From NCBI GenBank assembly GCA_038889235.1, contig JAWAHN010000001.1:914499-946498 (forward strand): 32,000 nt of DNA. The letters run 5' to 3'. The notes below the pieces were generated by a model. The model saw nothing but the letters and a program-made list of their open reading frames with translations. It made no database searches and was not told where the DNA came from. Numbering within the stretch: position 1 is the first letter of the stretch; each line of letters opens with the position of its first letter. This document shows positions 1-29,279 of this stretch, piece after piece. The DNA is from Candidatus Jordarchaeales archaeon (lineage in GTDB: Archaea > Asgardarchaeota > Jordiarchaeia > Jordiarchaeales > Freyrarchaeaceae). Position numbers and translations under genes: made by a program.

Positions 1-1689
1 AGTTCCTATCAATAGCTCTCTTTCCTCGGGAACAATCATGTCCTTTCCATTCGGCCTTTTAACGTTATACAACGGGGCTAAACCGAGGCGTTTAATACGC
101 TTGACAACTTCGTACCTGTAAAGCAGACTAGGAACCGTTATCTCGTTTATTATCCTTCCAAAGTCCTCGAAGAATGCGTCTTCATCCTTCCCCATAGTCC
201 GCGCAGCCGAGGCGACAGGGTTCGGCGTGTCCATCTGTATGGCACCGTAGACGGCATTTCCAGTAATGTATTCCTCAACTTGCTCTGGTGTTTTGGCACC
301 CCAGGTGTGGGAGCAACATGAAACGCAGCCGCCGATGATTTTTTTCCTCCAGTTAAGGTAATTGACGAAGTATGGTAAACCGTACTTCGCAGCTAACCTA
401 GCGGCCCAAATGTAGGCTTCTTCAAATTCTGGTTTCATCCACTCTTCTCTAAGTTCGATGTTAAGCTTGGGATAGTTGAACGGTTTACCGTACCGGTCAC
501 CGTAATACATGACTTTCATGAATTCTACGAAGTAGGTTTTCACTTCGTCAACAAAGTCACCGTAAACGTATTTTTCGCTTGTCTTACCTCCTGGGAGAAT
601 TACCGGCTCGTTCATAAACTCTTTCTTTATGCCGGGTCCTATGTCTATTGATGTGAAGGGGACTTGGCCGCCTCTTGCAACATATTGTTGTGTGGCGATG
701 TATGGAGTGTGCTGGCAGGCTTGTTCAACTTCACGTTTTGCTACACGTTTCAAAACGTAGGCCACAATGGCTTCTATAATCTCTCTCGGAACTTGGCTAA
801 ACTTCTGATAAAGTTCATCAGTTAAGCCTAAAGCGGGTTGGTTCATTTCTGCAACAAATTGTGCGGCACTCTTTAATGCTTCCTCTTGCTTGAGTCCCCT
901 GAGGTACCAAGCTATACCTTCCATCCAATTGTGGAATCCTTGACCCCCAGACATGTTGCTTTGCCACGTCGCTAACCATATAGCTGCATGGTTAACAAAT
1001 ACTGCCAAGTGTTTTGGTGGACCAGCACTTGAAGAGTGCATTCCTCTTAAGCCGTCGGGCTCCAGTCCTTGAACAATGAACAGGCGGGGATCCCACGACG
1101 CACAGTAGTCTCTTATACTCGTGTACTCCCTGTCTTTATGGTAGTTATCGCCATTCAAGTGAGCATCTGCAATGTTAGTGTCAAACACTAATTTTTTCCC
1201 ACTAGGAACGGTTACTTCCAAGTGTCCTGGCAAAGTTAGGTATGTATGTTCGGTCATTACACGGTCATAAACGACTTTGGCAATAGTTTCAGGGTTTATT
1301 TGTAGGTTAGCGTTCCAAGTGTGCTGCAGCGGGTTAAGGATCATTTCGTTCAGGTCATAAATAGGTATACCTATCCTAGTGTAGCGTTTTCTGGCTTCTA
1401 TAAGACCCATTTCAGCCAGGACGGAGCAGCACATTTCCCGTATCATTGGGCCTGAAAGCCACTGAATGTTCGCTGAGATTATGCGCTTAACGACATTCTT
1501 AGCTACTTCAGAAGCAACCTCCCTGCTGACACCAGCCTCCTTAACGAGACTGTCAATTATTTTTCTAACGTCAAAAGGCTCTATCATTCCTCGGTTTGTT
1601 CTAACTGCAGGCATCAACGAGCTCCAGAAAGTTTCATCAGTTCTTTCTTCTTTCACATTCTCTTCACTATGATTGAGGGCGGGCTTCAC
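1..1689 (-). CDS. nrdD: Anaerobic (class III) ribonucleoside-triphosphate reductase with N-terminal ATP-cone; 3' end runs off the window
   Basis: Absent from the ORF track (no stop in the window); translated by hand. The frame is open from GTG 1689 (SD AGGTGA upstream; alternative ATG 1614) to base 1. It shows an ATP-cone (EPFDVRKIIDSLVKEAG...GPMIREMCCSVL) and the motifs ADAHLNGD, DYCASWDPR, SAGPPKH, QSNMSGGQG, ARGGQVPFTSI, GKPFNYPK, KYGLPYFVN and VSCCS. Confidence 0.9.
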   Translation of the reverse strand, partial: MKPALNHSEENVKEERTDETFWSSLMPAVRTNRGMIEPFDVRKIIDSLVKEAGVSREVASEVAKNVVKRIISANIQWLSGPMIREMCCSVLAEMGLIEARKRYTRIGIPIYDLNEMILNPLQHTWNANLQINPETIAKVVYDRVMTEHTYLTLPGHLEVTVPSGKKLVFDTNIADAHLNGDNYHKDREYTSIRDYCASWDPRLFIVQGLEPDGLRGMHSSSAGPPKHLAVFVNHAAIWLATWQSNMSGGQGFHNWMEGIAWYLRGLKQEEALKSAAQFVAEMNQPALGLTDELYQKFSQVPREIIEAIVAYVLKRVAKREVEQACQHTPYIATQQYVARGGQVPFTSIDIGPGIKKEFMNEPVILPGGKTSEKYVYGDFVDEVKTYFVEFMKVMYYGDRYGKPFNYPKLNIELREEWMKPEFEEAYIWAARLAAKYGLPYFVNYLNWRKKIIGGCVSCCSHTWGAKTPEQVEEYITGNAVYGAIQMDTPNPVASAARTMGKDEDAFFEDFGRIINEITVPSLLYRYEVVKRIKRLGLAPLYNVKRPNGKDMIVPEERELLIGT

Positions 1690-1694
1690 AAAAA

Positions 1695-1985
1695 TCACCT
1701 TTCCATTATATTCATCAACATATTCTTCAGCTCTTCATAAGACACAGGTTCCCCGAGAACCAGAGCTTTCATATCATCATCTCTAACAGCGACAATAGTT
1801 GGCGTGCTTACAACGTAAATTTGATTCTTGAGCAATTCGAATTCAAGCTCCTCCGAAAGTTCTTTAACATCTACTATCTCAAATGGGATCTTAAGCTCCT
1901 CACAGACCTTCTCAGCCGACTTTTTTGCTACAGGACAGTTCGGGCAGTTTTCTTGCGTAAAAACAATAAGCTTTCTTATCATTGC
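1695..1985 (-). CDS. Thioredoxin/glutaredoxin-fold redoxin (NrdH-like)
   Basis: LIVFTQENCPNCP CxxC motif and a STPTI cis-Pro motif. Likely start is ATG 1985 (ORF extends to 2021). Its stop overlaps the nrdD SD. Confidence 0.8.
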   Translation of the reverse strand, partial: AMIRKLIVFTQENCPNCPVAKKSAEKVCEELKIPFEIVDVKELSEELEFELLKNQIYVVSTPTIVAVRDDDMKALVLGEPVSYEELKNMLMNIMER

Positions 1986-2182
1986 ATTCAAAACCCCCAA
2001 GAAGGGGCCAAGCACTGGCATTTTTTACATTTTTCATTTTTTACATTTTTTGTATAAACATGAGAAAACATGCCTTTAAAATGTTGTCTAACTTAAGAAT
2101 TGCCACCATTTTTTATTGCACATTCGCTTCTTATCCGGTAAAATGAAGATAGAACTATAAAGTATAGGTTTCCTAGAGGGGC

Positions 2183-3745: not shown

Positions 3746-4210
3746 TTATTCCTCAAACGAGGCGATCGCGCCTTCGGCTTCCTCGACGGAAACCTTGAGA
3801 CGTATATTGGTTGGTAAAACAGCTTTCAGTTCGTAGTAAAGGTACTCTGCTATTTTTTCGGCTGTTGTAGCTTCTACTGGCAGAAAGGCAACGTCACTTT
3901 TCGGGAAGACGTATTTTCGGTCGCTTAAAAAAACGTGAACTTCGTTCCCTTCCTCTTTAAGATTTAACCCCTTTGCTTTAATTGGAATTAGCACACGGTG
4001 ATCCAAGTGTTCACAAACAGACTTAACTGCATGTTTTACTGTGAAGAAGTCCACCACCATTTGGTTCTCGTCCAAAGAACTAGATGAAGCTTCCACGTGA
4101 ACCTTATAGTTGTGACCATGTAAACGAGAACATTTTTCGTGTGAAAGTAAAAAGTGAGCCGCTGAGAAGACTAAATCAGCTCTTTCAACAGCAACCCTAT
4201 ATGGCAACAT
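3746..4210 (-). CDS. queD: 6-carboxytetrahydropterin synthase (QueD/PTPS family)
   Basis: FSAAHFL, CSRLHGHNY, LDH, TAEKIA and VEE motifs. Confidence 0.9.
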   Translation of the reverse strand: MLPYRVAVERADLVFSAAHFLLSHEKCSRLHGHNYKVHVEASSSSLDENQMVVDFFTVKHAVKSVCEHLDHRVLIPIKAKGLNLKEEGNEVHVFLSDRKYVFPKSDVAFLPVEATTAEKIAEYLYYELKAVLPTNIRLKVSVEEAEGAIASFEE

Positions 4211-4228: not shown

Positions 4229-4858
4229 TTAGAAGGTTCTAGATTTTGCGATGTCTCCTTCTATGTCTAAAATTTCAGACCGATATTTTCTAGCGAGGGA
4301 GACCGCAAAGTCTTCAATCTCCTCTCTTCTAAAACCTAGGTCTAAGAGAGATGCTATCTTAATACCCGGAGGCCCACCTTTAGAAGATACATTAAAGGCA
4401 AAATGTATTTTTCCCGATGCGGGGGAAACTGTTGCTACACCTACATTAAGCTTACCATCATTGAAATAAAAGTCTGTACCCTTACGCTTCAAACGTAAAT
4501 TATGTGTTTCTTCAACAAGTTCTTTGAAGAGAAACGCAAGTATTCTCAAACGGTGGTACATGAGGCGCAGCGAGGGGGGCTGTTGGTCGAAGTGCTCAAT
4601 TATGAAGCTCACCGCTTCATCTGCACATATGACCGGGGTTCCTTTAGATCCTTCACGAAGGAAGTCCTTTACGTCCACGAGTTCTGAGGCTTCAACGTGA
4701 AGGGGGCCATTAAAGATAACTATTGAGTCACCTTGCAAGCCGAAGACTTTAAGAGACCATAGGGGCGCGATTTCTCTTCCGGTGTAGGGTAGCTTGTAAG
4801 TGAAGGGTAGGAGAGCTATCTTTAGGGGCTCTTTCTCGACTATCCTCAATTCTAACAT
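4229..4858 (-). CDS. DUF366-family protein (BPL/LplA-like fold)
   Basis: YTGREIAPLW, GDSIVIF, LVDVKD, FIIEHFD, RKGTDFY, KLNVGVAT and KIHFAFNV resemble DUF366. Confidence 0.75.
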   Translation of the reverse strand: MLELRIVEKEPLKIALLPFTYKLPYTGREIAPLWSLKVFGLQGDSIVIFNGPLHVEASELVDVKDFLREGSKGTPVICADEAVSFIIEHFDQQPPSLRLMYHRLRILAFLFKELVEETHNLRLKRKGTDFYFNDGKLNVGVATVSPASGKIHFAFNVSSKGGPPGIKIASLLDLGFRREEIEDFAVSLARKYRSEILDIEGDIAKSRTF

Positions 4859-4873
4859 GGGTAAACCCCACCA

Positions 4874-5727
4874 TTACAGTATGCCCAGCATTTTATGGAC
4901 TTGCAGTGATATCGAAACGTTTTCGCTTCCCAAGTAACGTGCAGCCAGCTCGGTAAATTTGCAAAGTTGTTGAAAGCTTGGAGGAAGGTAACCGTCCTTC
5001 GGAGTTACTGGTTGAATACACACTGGGCACTCTAATTTAGAAAGTTCACGTGAGTACCATTCAATGTTTTCCGTTTTGGTGTTTGAAGTAACTACTATTT
5101 TAGCGAAAACAGCCACCCCACTGTCTGAGAGAATTTTTATTGTTTTAAGCTCCAGTTCGACGAGCTCTTTCCAGTTTTTTGCAGCGTTAGCGGATTCATC
5201 TTTAATGTCGCAACAGCAGTAGTCTATTAGGCTGGCAATTCTAGCTGCAGCTTCAGGAATTGAGCCATTAGTTTCGAGATATAATTTGAAACCCGCATCC
5301 TTAATAGCTTCTGCGGTTGAACGCAGGAATTCTGGTTGGAATAACGGCTCCCCACCTGTCAGGGAAACGGCGTGGACATCTGGTGAGCGAAGATTACAAA
5401 CCCATTCGACTACGAAGCGTGAATCCACGGGGTTCTTGAAGTTGAAAACCTCACCCGTTGGTGTAACTACTCTCAAGTAGGTAGGGTTGGGCTGTACGGC
5501 GTGGGGGGTTTTGCGTTAGTTCATAAGTCGCACCACCCACACCCTTTACTTCCAAAGGCTCCGAGACCTATATTGCATCCTGAAAAACGGACAATTCGAC
5601 GGCATTAAAGCCTATATCGTCCGCCGCCCGTAATTTGAGCCCCTTACGCTTCCGCCTTCACCTTTACCCCTTCCCCGACTAGGAAGGATTGGTAGGAAGA
5701 GAATATCTCGTAGACCCACCCGCTCAT
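4874..5727 (-). CDS. queE: 7-carboxy-7-deazaguanine synthase QueE (radical SAM), 263 aa after removal of three BHB micro-introns. Exons: 5727-5689, 5662-5614, 5594-5527, 5509-4874
   Basis: The joined exons (39+49+68+636 = 792 nt) translate without stops: MSGWVYEIFSSYQ/GEGGSVRGSNYGRRTI/FVRFSGCNIGLGAFGSKGCGWCD/TPHAVQPNPTYLRVV...SLTGGEPLFQ...YLETNG...IQPV...QVHKMLGIL. The ORF track captured only exon 4, which lacks the Fe-S motif. Confidence 0.92.
5510..5526 (-). other. BHB intron 3 of queE (17 nt)
   Basis: GUGGGUGG-UGCG-AC|U-UAUGAACUAA-CGCA-AA|A-CCCCCCAC. Central helix UGCG/CGCA; the exon-exon stem pairs at 7 of 8 positions. Removal gives TGC GAC|ACC (WCD-T). Confidence 0.88.
5595..5613 (-). 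other. BHB intron 2 of queE (19 nt)
   Basis: CGAU-AU|A-GGC-UUUAAU-GCC-GUCG-AA|U. Central helix CGAU/GUCG (one G-U pair). Removal gives ATA T|TT GTC (I-F-V-R-F). Confidence 0.88.
5663..5688 (-). other. BHB intron 1 of queE (26 nt)
   Basis: UACC-AA|U-CCUUCC-UAGUCGG-GGAAGG-GGUA-AA|G. The 4-bp central helix UACC/GGUA has two 3-nt bulges and a 6-bp intron stem. Removal gives CAA|GGT (Q-GEG). Confidence 0.9.
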
Positions 5728-5829
5728 GGTCACACCGTCCTTTTCCTTCTATGCCTGTTCTTAAATTATTACTCTAGAAATGAGTTGGATGGGAAAACCA
5801 TTAAAATTTCTTAACCTTTTCGTTTAGAT

Positions 5830-6282
5830 GTGCCAAGTGAGGTAAAAAGGGGGAAGTTGTTCGAATTGTCACTAATGAGACTTTTGATACCCAAAGTAGA
5901 AGTGAACGTTTGCAATGTGCGTTCAGTCGAACAATCGATAAGAAAGGCTGAAAGAGGTTTAGCAGGATACTTTGAAACGACAGCTGTGGTGTTAATGCAC
6001 AAGGAGGATATGAAAAAGATTGGTGTGAAGAGCGGAGACAAAGTTAAAGTTTCTTCGAATTACGGAGCGGTTATCGTCAAAGTGTATGAGACTGACGAAA
6101 CAAAGCCGGGATTAGTTTTGATGCCCAACGGCCCTTGGTTTAACACAATTAGCGGAGGAGACATACAGGTGACCTGGGGGGAACACTACTACTTAGTTAG
6201 GGCGACCGTGGAGGCGACGAGCAAGGAGGAAACGAAACTAGAGGACATAGAGAGAGATCTTTTCGGAGAGGGTGGAAAATGA
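5830..6282 (+). CDS. fwdD: Formylmethanofuran dehydrogenase subunit D
   Basis: Molybdopterin dinucleotide-binding-domain pattern: MHKEDMKKIGVKSGDKVKVSSNYG and MPNGPWFN. True start may be ATG 5875. Confidence 0.8.
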   Translation: MPSEVKRGKLFELSLMRLLIPKVEVNVCNVRSVEQSIRKAERGLAGYFETTAVVLMHKEDMKKIGVKSGDKVKVSSNYGAVIVKVYETDETKPGLVLMPNGPWFNTISGGDIQVTWGEHYYLVRATVEATSKEETKLEDIERDLFGEGGK

Positions 6283-25827: not shown

Positions 25828-26883
25828 TTACTCTGGGACCTCCTCGATGCGAGGCAGCGCCTCTATCAAGGCCCCGTCGATTATGGGGTTTCCACCTTCC
25901 TTGAACCTGTTAGCGGCAACAAACACTGCCTGATTGCAAAGCATGCGCAGGTCACGCCCTATGCCCATCGACTTTCGCCTCAGAACCGGAATAGCATCTT
26001 CGGTGAACGGGTGTATCTCGAATGACGACTCGTCAAACTCCTTAAGGCGGCCACTGGCCCAGTAAAGTCTCCTCCCTATGAACTCTCTAACACCCCGCTC
26101 GTCTAACGGCGCAAGCTCAATCTCCCAGCACCTATCGTAAAGGTGGGGAACACCCTCCTTGAGACCTATAACATGAGTCTTCGTTCCGGTCAAAACAAGC
26201 ATGCATATCATCTCGTCCTCATCGCCTTCCTCCGCGGAGCGCTTAATAGCTTCAAGCTCCCTTTCGTCGAGCTTCATCTTCTTAATCTTGAGGAACCGTC
26301 TAAACTCGTCTTCTTCTTCGAGCACAAACCTCTTCGCATCCTTCAGCGTCAGGTCTCCGATCTCTTTGACCTTAATGAAAACTTCAACATCGTTCTCGCC
26401 GAAATCATCTATGAATATCAAAGTAAGATATCTAGTCAAAAGATATCGAAGCATGATATCATACTTAATAAGCAAGTAAATGTCCTCAGCGTTGGCCGAG
26501 CGGGGATACGGGATCCTGAGCTTCCTAGCTAGGACCTCGGCCATCTGCTTAACGTAAAGCTTACTCTGGGAAACCATAACCGGGTAGAAGCGGTACTCAG
26601 GGTCGCCCTTCTTAGAGAGCTCCAACAAGTCCCCGTAGATCAACTCAAGAAGCGTCGTCTTACCCATCCCAGGGAACTCGCTAGTTATCAGTATGTGTCT
26701 TTCCCTAGACTTGATGTAATCATCAATTTCAACTATCACATCGTAGGGAGCCACAAACAACTCAGGGTCGCTTAAACGCACACTCGAAAACGGGTTCCAC
26801 CGCCACCCAAACAAAGAATAGTACGCATTCCTAACCTCGGCCACCGAAGGATATACACGCCCAACAGCGCCGATACGTTCCAT
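25828..26883 (-). CDS. ExeA/GspA-like AAA+ ATPase (stand-alone)
   Basis: YYSLFGWRWNPFS, Walker A SEFPGMGKTT, Walker B LIFIDD, LVLTG, LYDR, LAPLDERGVREFIGRRL and FTEDAI...SMGIGRDLRMLCNQA follow the ExeA pattern. Confidence 0.75.
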   Translation of the reverse strand: MERIGAVGRVYPSVAEVRNAYYSLFGWRWNPFSSVRLSDPELFVAPYDVIVEIDDYIKSRERHILITSEFPGMGKTTLLELIYGDLLELSKKGDPEYRFYPVMVSQSKLYVKQMAEVLARKLRIPYPRSANAEDIYLLIKYDIMLRYLLTRYLTLIFIDDFGENDVEVFIKVKEIGDLTLKDAKRFVLEEEDEFRRFLKIKKMKLDERELEAIKRSAEEGDEDEMICMLVLTGTKTHVIGLKEGVPHLYDRCWEIELAPLDERGVREFIGRRLYWASGRLKEFDESSFEIHPFTEDAIPVLRRKSMGIGRDLRMLCNQAVFVAANRFKEGGNPIIDGALIEALPRIEEVPE

Positions 26884-27230
26884 GAAATCTCACCCCGAAA
26901 CCTGATATCGAAATCTGAAAAAGATATCAGCACACAGACATCAACACCAAAAAGCGATATACGAAAACGAAGACAAAAATGATAGTAATACACACGTATT
27001 ACGAGAAGAACACAACAAGAGGAAAGGTTAGCCCCAGGGACGACGGAGAACAAAGTAGCCTTGAAAGGCGTCACAAGCCGCTGAGGGAGCCGAGAGCCAC
27101 GAAGAGTTTACAAAAAAGTATACCACAAGAACTAGGCTAAAGAAAAAGGCCAAGAAAGGAGGGGGATATAAACAAGGAACACCAAGGTATTACGTTAAAA
27201 ATACGAGGAAAACATGATGGTTTCCAGGGA

Positions 27231-27254
27231 TTTTTGGAACACGTGTTCCAAAAA
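27231..27254. repeat. Perfect 24-bp palindrome TTTTTGGAACAC|GTGTTCCAAAAA
   Basis: Read directly from the sequence. Confidence 0.9.
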
Positions 27255-27258
27255 ACTC

Positions 27259-27663
27259 CTACTTCTTACTCTCCTTAAGTGAGGCGTAAAGGTTGAGAAG
27301 ATCAATCCAAGACTTCAGGTAACCCTTAACAAAACCAGCCTTCTGAGGAACGTTTGCGAAAAATGTCTCAGCCAGAGATTCAAGGTACTTTGCAAACCCT
27401 CTCGCTTCCTCAGCCGAAATGCCATTCACGAGGACAGCTATCAAAGAAGACCTGCTGAGCCTTTCAAGGCCAACGAGCCAACCTTTCCAGGCGAGCTCAA
27501 CCCACTTATCTTTAATTTGTGCCCCCTCCAGAGTGGTTCTTGCTATTTCAATGGCCTTCTTGCGGTCACCTTCAACCAGAGCTTTAGCAAGTTCCTCGAT
27601 CGCACTCAAAACGACCACCAACCTTGTAGAAAGTATTGAGACACAACTAATTAATGTTTCCAA
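27259..27663 (-). CDS. Hypothetical all-helical protein
   Basis: Amphipathic helices and typical codon usage. Likely start is TTG 27609 after GGTGG. Confidence 0.65.
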   Translation of the reverse strand: METLISCVSILSTRLVVVLSAIEELAKALVEGDRKKAIEIARTTLEGAQIKDKWVELAWKGWLVGLERLSRSSLIAVLVNGISAEEARGFAKYLESLAETFFANVPQKAGFVKGYLKSWIDLLNLYASLKESKK

Positions 27664-27751
27664 TTGCTGATTATGAAATCAGAAATCAAAATCAGATATC
27701 ATCATTAGGAATCGTGACCTCTGTACAGAAACCAGACAAGAAAGAGAGACC

Positions 27752-27771
27752 ACCCCTTCGTTTCAACTGCA
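27752..27771 (-). promoter_or_regulatory. Origin recognition box (ORB)
   Basis: Minus strand TGCAGTTGAAACGAAGGGGT matches the ORB consensus TCCAGTGGAAACRAAGGGG, including the G-string. Confidence 0.85.
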
Positions 27772-27905
27772 AATAAGCCAGAAGCCGCTTAAGTGATCAA
27801 AAGAAACATATCTGAAAAAATTTATATACTTCAAACCCCCTCTTTTTTGGGGGAGAGTTTTACTTTTAAAGTTTAATTATTAAACTTTTCATAAGAGTTT
27901 TTGTC

Positions 27906-27925
27906 TCCACTGGAAACAAAGGGGT
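27906..27925 (+). promoter_or_regulatory. Origin recognition box (ORB)
   Basis: TCCACTGGAAACAAAGGGGT. Confidence 0.9.
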
Positions 27926-27936
27926 CTCTGAGTTTA

Positions 27937-27973
27937 TTTGGAACACATGTTCTAGTTTGGAACACATGTTCTA
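27937..27973 (+). repeat. Tandem 18-bp direct repeat TTTGGAACACATGTTCTA x2 (period 19)
   Basis: Copies at 27937-27954 and 27956-27973. Confidence 0.9.
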
Positions 27974-28327
27974 AATATCCTCCTCTCCCGATATTACAAA
28001 AACGCGACACTTCACTATGTCTTTATACCTCCTGAAGAAGGCGTTGAAGATTGCTGCGTGCTCGTCTCGAACCAGTATCGCGCTGTCTCCTGCTCTCTCA
28101 CAGTCGTATGTCTCTACGAGGCCTTTTTTCTCTTTCTTCATTACTTTTCCGTCTTTGTTCCTCCAGGTATATGTGTAGCCGAAGAGTTCCTTGAAGAATT
28201 TTATTCTACGTGGGTCGTTTGACATTCCTTCTTTCACGTCGTAGACGTATATCCTCAATTTTGCTCCCCTCTTTTGAGGGTATCTTTGTTTCTTAAAGTA
28301 AGCTTGTATTTCCAAGGTTTTCTTCAA
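27971..28327 (-). CDS. Small basic protein with a Cas2/VapD-like ferredoxin-fold pattern, inside the origin
   Basis: RIYVYDV...DPRRIKFFKELFGY...GDSAILV echoes the Cas2 pattern vaYDi..dkRr.kv.k.l...g...qkSvf. Confidence 0.6.
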   Translation of the reverse strand: MKKTLEIQAYFKKQRYPQKRGAKLRIYVYDVKEGMSNDPRRIKFFKELFGYTYTWRNKDGKVMKKEKKGLVETYDCERAGDSAILVRDEHAAIFNAFFRRYKDIVKCRVFVISGEEDI

Positions 28328-28442: not shown

Positions 28443-28814
28443 GCAAAAAATCTTGGGACTTCCTTTCTTTATTTGACGTTAACAATTTTTGTTAATTTTC
28501 TTTTGCCAAAAACAGTGGAAAAAACTATTTTTTTACTTTTTTCAGGTAATTTTTTTCTTTATTGGTGTTAACGTTTGTTTTTTCGCCGTTTTTTTCTTTT
28601 TCGCTATTTTTCTTTCTTTTTGTCTTTTCTTGCTGTTCTTGGTTAACAAGTTAGTAGTGTTAACTTGTTTCACATTTTTGACTTTTAGCGTTAACTGAGG
28701 TTGGTGTGCTTTGTACCTGCTGCTTCCCGTAATAGATAAAGATATATATGTCGTATGCGGAGATTTAACTTGCCTCGTTTCCGGTGGAAGGCGCGCCAGT
28801 TGGGGGCCCTATTA

Positions 28815-29279
28815 GTGAGACGCTATAAGATAGAGATAGTTGATAGTGAACGCAATCTGAAGGCTACTTTAACTCTTGAGGGTGATGTGTCCCCCCAGCT
28901 GGCAGCATCTCTTGTGGAGGAGCTCTCCGAGAAGCTTTCTAGAGGTGAGATTGTAGAGGAGGTTCCTGAGGGCGGTGCGTCAGAGGCCGGTGCTGGGGTT
29001 TTCCCTGACCCTGAGAACCTTTCTATGAAGGATAAGTTTGAGCTTTTGTTGTTGAAGTATTTCCAATATGGGTGGTTTACCTCTACTGATGTCCATGAGC
29101 AGTTTACCCGTGTTTTTGGCAAGACTTCTTTGAGCGTGGTGTCTACGTACTTGGCGAGGCTTTACAGCGAAGGTTTCCTGGAACGTAAGGGGACAAAGAA
29201 GCAGTACTACTACCGGCTCAAGGAGAGCGTTAGGGTTAAAGCTGCTGGATTTGGTGAGCTTCTTCAGCTGCTCCCGTGA
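28815..29279 (+). CDS. Winged-helix protein upstream of cdc6
   Basis: C-terminal WFTSTDVHEQF...SLSVVSTYLARLYSEGFLERKG...YYYRL wHTH. Likely start is GTG 28815 (ORF extends to 28755). Confidence 0.75.
   Translation: MRRYKIEIVDSERNLKATLTLEGDVSPQLAASLVEELSEKLSRGEIVEEVPEGGASEAGAGVFPDPENLSMKDKFELLLLKYFQYGWFTSTDVHEQFTRVFGKTSLSVVSTYLARLYSEGFLERKGTKKQYYYRLKESVRVKAAGFGELLQLLP

Follow-up and report, generated by a model that had tools for sequence, protein, structure and literature searches.

How does a prokaryote obtain a full-length enzyme from a gene whose reading frame is broken three times near its 5' end? The question is raised by a QueE-like radical-SAM gene on the minus strand of the window, i.e., the whole 32,000-nt stretch of Jordarchaeales DNA, from a hot-spring Asgard archaeon, analysed here. 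The gene starts with an ATG at 5727, a position that aligns with the GTG/ATG starts of its relatives, and its large C-terminal ORF (5476..4874) encodes the radical-SAM domain. Three mini-introns of 26, 19, and 17 nt lie within the first 210 nt after the start codon; upstream of the first of these the frame reads MSGWVYEIFSSYQ, and downstream of it a different frame reads GEGGSVRGSNYGRRTI. The parts of the gene are as follows, in window positions:

5689..5727, minus strand: exon 1, 39 nt, Met1-Gln13 (...EIFSSYQ); holds h5 and H5 of the intron-1 fold
5663..5688, minus strand: intron 1, 26 nt, phase 0, between Gln13 (CAA) and Gly14 (GGU); consists of the third nucleotide of bulge 1, the inner stem, the loop, H3, and the first two nucleotides of bulge 2
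5614..5662, minus strand: exon 2, 49 nt, GEGGSVRGSNYGRRTI plus 1 nt; starts with the last nucleotide of bulge 2, followed by h3
5595..5613, minus strand: intron 2, 19 nt, phase 1; helix H CGAU/GUCG, bulges AUA and AAU, 3-bp inner stem GGC/GCC
5527..5594, minus strand: exon 3, 68 nt, FVRFSGCNIGLGAFGSKGCGWCD; carries the three cluster cysteines, C-x11-C-x2-C
5510..5526, minus strand: intron 3, 17 nt, phase 0; helix H UGCG/CGCA, bulges ACU and AAA, almost no inner stem
4874..5509, minus strand: exon 4, 636 nt with the stop codon; remainder of the radical-SAM barrel

Removal of the introns leaves a 792-nt CDS of 263 aa without an internal stop. Judging from the comparisons set out below, 5688..5663 (-) is in all likelihood a tRNA-type intron with a bulge-helix-bulge (BHB) fold in the pre-mRNA of this QueE-like gene, the first of three, and very probably the host, a prokaryote, must use its tRNA-splicing enzymes on an mRNA with several introns. 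Read from the ATG at 5727, the message encodes 27 aa if all introns are kept, 29 aa once intron 1 is removed, and 53 aa once introns 1 and 2 are removed. An earlier note on this DNA had called intron 1 the earliest of the gene and put the peptide that results from its retention at 27 aa, and our computation gave the same. Its suggestion that intron 1 acts as a gatekeeper found no specific support, as the sole removal of this intron lengthens the product by so little; all three introns are equally indispensable, and nothing singles out the first. Since the cluster cysteines are in exon 3, the 200-aa C-terminal ORF alone cannot function as a radical-SAM enzyme. The 263-aa enzyme, with QGEG and the three cluster cysteines, would be encoded only once all three introns are gone.

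The three inserts were defined by mapping intronless Asgard orthologues onto the window. In other Asgard lineages, these orthologues carry EIFSSFQGEG....GSCYGKRQIFIRFAGCN...C.WCDSP... in one frame, and the spliced N-terminus matches them residue for residue (EIFSS(Y/F)QGEG...G(K/R)R.IF.RF.GCN...C.WCD), with the predicted cuts of intron 1 falling exactly at the break in homology. We also compared 11 Jordarchaeia species genomes, which represent three genera. The gene is present in every species genome of this collection, and in every one the inserts stand at the same three sites. Their lengths vary (20-26 nt for intron 1, 18-30 nt for intron 2, and 15-30 nt for intron 3) and many are not multiples of three, whereas exon 2 measures 49 nt and exon 3 measures 68 nt without exception, and removal of the inserts leaves an open frame in every genome. 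In this comparison, canonical cuts would yield CAA|GGU and restore the frame and the colinearity with intronless orthologues throughout the 11 genomes. The protein encoded by the mini-exons is 68-88% identical to that of this genome, as against 49-75% for the C-terminal part. Among the Asgard lineages looked at, the introns were not found outside Jordarchaeia; two short gene calls from other Asgard lineages (P0038 and P0066) were considered as possible cases of hidden introns and rejected, their DNA being uninterrupted and their starts mis-called.

Public annotation gives a different picture of the gene. Every call inspected in Jordarchaeia or "Freyarchaeota" records (P0003-P0008, P0010, P0014, and P0017) is N-terminally truncated or misframed; all are without the QGEG motif, most are also without the iron-sulfur cysteines, and in G003 the 15-nt intron 3, which is in frame, is translated as SKKRK. 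Metabolic reconstructions based on such calls could wrongly score the pathway as broken. The calls, which treat the protein as N-terminally short or misframed, would be in keeping with a decaying pseudogene, in which three insertions or frameshifts at the 5' end have left a remnant ORF and no splicing takes place, but decay is extremely improbable in view of insert sites that are identical throughout the 11 species genomes and their three genera, the invariant lengths of stop-free exons, the greater conservation of the mini-exons than of the rest, and the compensatory changes, described below, that keep the intron-1 fold. Moreover, the genome encodes QueC, QueD, and arcTGT, and the split gene is its sole QueE candidate.

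The reading of the first insert as a BHB intron depends on how it folds together with its flanking exons. Its elements are:

5700..5695, minus strand: h5, UCUUCC, in exon 1
5694..5691, minus strand: H5, UACC, in exon 1
5690..5688, minus strand: bulge B1, AAU
5687..5681 with 5675..5669, minus strand: inner stem, CCUUCC(U)/(G)GGAAGG
5680..5676, minus strand: loop
5668..5665, minus strand: H3, GGUA
5664..5662, minus strand: bulge B2, AAG
5661..5655, minus strand: h3, G(U)GAAGG, in exon 2

The core is a canonical BHB, in which a 4-bp helix (UACC/GGUA) is flanked by 3-nt bulges, AAU and AAG, on opposite strands. The inner stem has 6 bp and a 7-nt loop, or 7 bp and a 5-nt loop if the closing U.G is counted, and the outer helix is imperfect, with 1 bp, a bulged U, and then 5 bp. 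The 26-mer that the earlier note had placed at 5663-5688 equals the reverse complement of 5663..5688 exactly, and every structural element drawn there (the central helix, both bulges, the 6-bp stem, the 7-nt loop, and the imperfect exon stem) was recovered. The claim that a BHB-type intron splits Q|GEG at this point is upheld by the agreement of the cuts with the homology break and by the covariation of the fold; the accompanying description of a "textbook" hBHBh' holds for the core and is slightly generous for the whole, given the bulged U after the first pair of the outer helix. Introns 2 and 3 are relaxed BHBs, with one mismatch in H in six (intron 2) and two (intron 3) of the 11 genomes. 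For intron 3, a register one nucleotide further 3' also restores the frame (D-S-P vs. D-T-P), but without a BHB.

Three features of the surrounding letters may be recorded here. In this genus, the outer exon stem UCUUCC/GAAGG has a near copy in the inner stem CCUUCC/GGAAGG (5655-5700 (-)); the resemblance does not extend to the other family, whose inner stem is UCCCCC/GGGGGA. The 3' part of intron 1 is GGGGAAGGG, i.e., G-E-G in the retained frame. A Tyr codon (UAC), which supplies three of the four nucleotides of H5 (5691-5694 (-)), precedes the Gln of QGEG in 11 of 11 intron-bearing genes, and Phe, Ile, or Leu takes its place in the intronless orthologues examined; this may reflect lineage history or a constraint imposed by the BHB.

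Covariation was measured on an alignment of the intron-1 region from the 11 Jordarchaeia genomes. With the hBHBh' pairing, 96% of cells were paired, compared to 58-67% when the partner was slid by 1-3 columns. Six of the 16 pairs changed on both sides (22 cells), and none of 500 shuffles reached the observed covariation, a figure that overstates independence since the 11 genomes are kin; the slid controls keep this relatedness. Five of the six covarying pairs are in the inner stem, h', and make up five of its six pairs. Versions of this stem among the genomes include CCUUCC/GGAAGG, CUUCC/GGAAG, CCUUA/UAAGG, UCCCU/AGGGA, and UCCCCC/GGGGGA. The sixth pair is in the outer helix and joins the synonymous third position of a Ser codon in exon 1 to the synonymous third position of a Glu codon in exon 2 (U-A in five genomes, C-G in four). 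Thus, the coding sequence itself is under constraint to keep the outer helix. The central helix H is paired at 4 of 4 positions in each of the 11 genomes, U-A varying to U.G, h' has 5-7 bp in all 11, and h (1 bp, a 1-nt bulge, and 5 bp) is 97% paired, i.e., present but imperfect.

Folding energies gave no comparable signal. The MFE structure (ViennaRNA) did not draw the two 3-nt bulges, and z-scores of -0.98 (56 nt) and -0.16 (301 nt) showed that the hairpin is not unusually stable. The BHB conformation lies 0.9-2.3 kcal/mol above the MFE at 37-75 C; as modelled, it is accessible and is not the predicted ground state. A scan of the window for BHB motifs of this quality returned a single match, the intron-1 site, against a mean of 3.07 per dinucleotide shuffle, i.e., no enrichment. 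Neither Rfam on 4800..5900 nor ARAGORN on the window produced a match. Motif and thermodynamics alone are not special, and the case rests on exact position, frame, and covariation.

The same properties bear on the possibility that the RNA stays unspliced and the inserts are skipped during translation by ribosomal bypassing, hopping, or frameshifting. Other authors at one time mistook cbf5 cases for translational frameshifting (PMC2738675), and ribosome stalling at the intron-1 hairpin is conceivable. A single gene with three bypasses (26, 19, and 17 nt) that lack matched take-off and landing codons would, however, have no precedent. Instead, a 4-bp helix with two 3-nt bulges stands at exactly the needed boundaries of each insert, and the stem partners covary like an RNA-processing signal; we consider skipping to be scarcely credible.

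Splicing by tRNA enzymes would require an endonuclease and a ligase. Two EndA-family genes (196 and 195 aa) were found in the genome, one with the Tyr/His/Lys catalytic residues and the other without the His; by their sequences, they are an alpha-like and a beta-like subunit in a predicted (alpha-beta)2 arrangement. RtcB is encoded as well (599.9 bits). The EndA of Asgard archaea has been described as an (alpha-beta)2 enzyme with an L1 loop that confers broad specificity (Kaneta et al., PMC5829648). Such a reported specificity fits introns 2 and 3, which, being relaxed, would depend on an enzyme of broad specificity presumed to be active here.

From these components, we infer cleavage and ligation, the exact cut points in the bulges, and the fate of the intron as follows. 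Exonic UACC would pair with intronic GGUA, leaving a 3-nt bulge on each side, and the heterotetrameric (alpha-beta)2 endonuclease would cut both bulges, canonically after the second bulge nucleotide. RtcB would then join the exons to give ...UAC CAA|GGU GAA GGC... (Y-Q-G-E-G) and might also close the 26-mer into a circle; circularisation is plausible by analogy, given RtcB and the known archaeal tRNA and rRNA introns. Since each bulge opens with AA, three symmetric cut registers would produce an identical mRNA junction and an identical circle. Junction reads could therefore confirm splicing and not the cut register, for which the ends of linear introns could serve.

Four RNA runs (a metatranscriptome in which 12% of the words occurred, and three sets of raw hot-spring reads) yielded two contigs, which cover 4874..5196 only, and no raw reads; coverage over 5226..5830, introns included, was zero in these runs. 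Searches for the spliced junctions, exact for this genome and degenerate for the whole class, returned 0 matches in JGI metagenome contigs, where the organism may be absent, and the spliced form of the protein was not among a set of 5.8 billion proteins. One might suppose that EndA cuts the BHB and the exons are not, or rarely, rejoined, so that the site is an off-switch or an entry point for transcript decay. For this there is nothing specific, apart from the BHB in a Haloferax 5'UTR that affects HVO_1309 expression (PMC7714728), and it is very unlikely considering that RtcB is present and that strong purifying selection on the mini-exons and on exact restoration of the frame can be understood only as a result of translation of the joined mRNA. 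Where the exons are both cut and joined, as we propose, the three 5'-proximal introns could conceivably be a control device: expression of the sole QueE-like enzyme of the preQ0/archaeosine (tRNA modification) pathway would be gated by tRNA-splicing capacity, in competition with ribosomes loading 39 nt upstream of intron 1, and the excised introns would be stable functional circles. We regard this extension as improbable.

Several known systems resemble the one proposed here. Archaeal tRNAs with multiple introns, at non-canonical positions, were reportedly described by Marck and Grosjean in 2003. The tRNA introns of Thermoproteota and Asgard archaea share with the present case hBHBh' and relaxed motifs, mini-introns of 11-30 nt, up to three per gene, and an (alpha-beta)2 EndA with an L1 loop; here, by contrast, the host is an mRNA and the constraint is the reading frame rather than the tRNA fold. 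In HAC1 and XBP1 mRNA, Ire1 cuts at two stem-loop sites, the exons are sealed by a tRNA ligase, which in metazoa is RtcB, and the loss of a 26-nt intron changes the reading frame of XBP1. There, too, a protein endonuclease and a tRNA ligase act on an mRNA and alter its frame, but the nuclease is the Ire1 kinase/RNase and not EndA, the motif is another, and the event is a regulated stress switch. The part played by RtcB in this unconventional eukaryotic mRNA splicing has been noted (PMC8718801).

The closest precedent is the cbf5 pre-mRNA of Crenarchaeota, which has a short BHB intron in its coding sequence (Watanabe, 2002; Yoshinari, 2006; Yokobori, 2009, PMC2738675). As presumed for the present gene, its intron is a substrate of a hetero-oligomeric endonuclease, removal restores the frame, and genome annotation misreads the gene. 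The two cases differ in the number of introns (one, compared to three with 49- and 68-nt micro-exons), in phylum and host gene (here a QueE-like radical SAM of the Asgard class Jordarchaeia), and in the kind of evidence, as RT-PCR and in vitro work demonstrated the splicing of cbf5 and here we infer it from comparison. The HVO_1309 mRNA of Haloferax volcanii carries a BHB intron in its 5'UTR (Schwarz et al., 2020, PMC7714728) and is likewise an mRNA substrate of an archaeal splicing endonuclease; however, it has a single site in an untranslated leader with no frame to restore, and the enzyme is of the alpha'2 type. The same 2020 paper still called cbf5 the only additional example (PMC7714728). 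Indeed, in the searchable literature we found coding-sequence introns spliced by the archaeal endonuclease only for cbf5 and a 5'UTR intron only for HVO_1309, and no report of mRNA introns in Asgard archaea or Jordarchaeia. The locus very probably represents a multi-intron phenomenon of the cbf5 type, new in an Asgard class: one gene, with three BHB introns and two micro-exons, kept through the whole depth of that class. With three BHBs of decreasing strictness in ~220 nt, it would offer a compact substrate for work on Asgard EndA specificity and on the way in which coupled transcription and translation can accommodate splicing.

Assignment of the host gene calls for some caution. Against five QueE models, whose cut-offs are 200-300, the intronless orthologues reach 33-52 bits, the NrdG2 score is similar, and the C-terminal ORF of the gene is also below the QueE cut-offs. 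Since it falls below every curated cut-off, the gene is filed as QueE-like (COG0602-type) rather than as an established QueE. After splicing, the product would contain SSYQGEG and a C-x11-C-x2-C triad with D-T behind it; QGEG and a cysteine triad ending in WCD(T/S) are what we take to be the marks of QueE. Two genes follow in the same direction:

4229..4858, minus strand: DUF366 gene, directly downstream of the QueE-like gene; DUF366 is also linked to an intronless orthologue
3746..4210, minus strand: gene of the QueD/6-pyruvoyl-tetrahydropterin synthase family, after DUF366

Intronless orthologues adjoin FolE2 (GCHY-1), DUF366, QueD, and QueC. In this genome, QueC and arcTGT are encoded elsewhere, and the split gene is the only match to the QueE family. 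An NrdG identity, raised by the presence of NrdD at the window start, became less likely, as the genome has a much better NrdG2 candidate at another locus and the orthologues sit among genes of the preQ0 pathway. The NrdD gene itself (anaerobic ribonucleotide reductase, ATP-cone) runs off the window start at 1-2021 (-), and a glutaredoxin-like gene is directly upstream of it on the same strand. For an NrdG2-like activase, the best candidate (G000:C2:37035-37595, on a different contig) scores 121 bits, just under the cut-off.

Interruption by short introns is not confined to this gene, which counts in favour of the reading given above. Elsewhere in the genome, a perfect 27-nt BHB (G000:C3:304889-304915 (+)) with H UCAG/CUGA, both bulges AAA, and a 7-bp inner stem interrupts an FAD_binding_4 domain; the upstream ORF covers profile positions 1-80 and the downstream ORF positions 93-139. 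This case, which held up when its two ORFs were compared with the profile, came from the list of a genome-wide scan for BHBs that join two open frames, which gave 49 for real cuts vs. 53-70 for cuts shifted by 1-2 nt and is uninformative as a count, since same-strand neighbouring genes dominate it. ARAGORN found only 14 tRNA genes in the whole genome, which is 95% complete. In 10 of them it called introns, of 11-96 nt apart from a questionable one of 1333 nt. Interruptions probably keep most tRNA genes from being recognised. The low number and the frequent introns fit a preprint on heavily interrupted Asgard tRNA genes, which makes no mention of mRNA introns (bioRxiv 10.64898/2026.10.13.758758). 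A second candidate from the genome-wide list, a 49-nt BHB-like insert with H CACC/GGUG, is upstream of a radical-SAM ORF (G000:C1:36616-36664 (-)), and the 79-aa piece upstream of this insert has no Pfam match. In the window, the regions 25828-28327 (-) and 28755-29279 (+) hold five ORFs of 100-351 aa that match no Pfam family, two of which (25828-26883 and 26772-27074) overlap by 112 nt in different frames.
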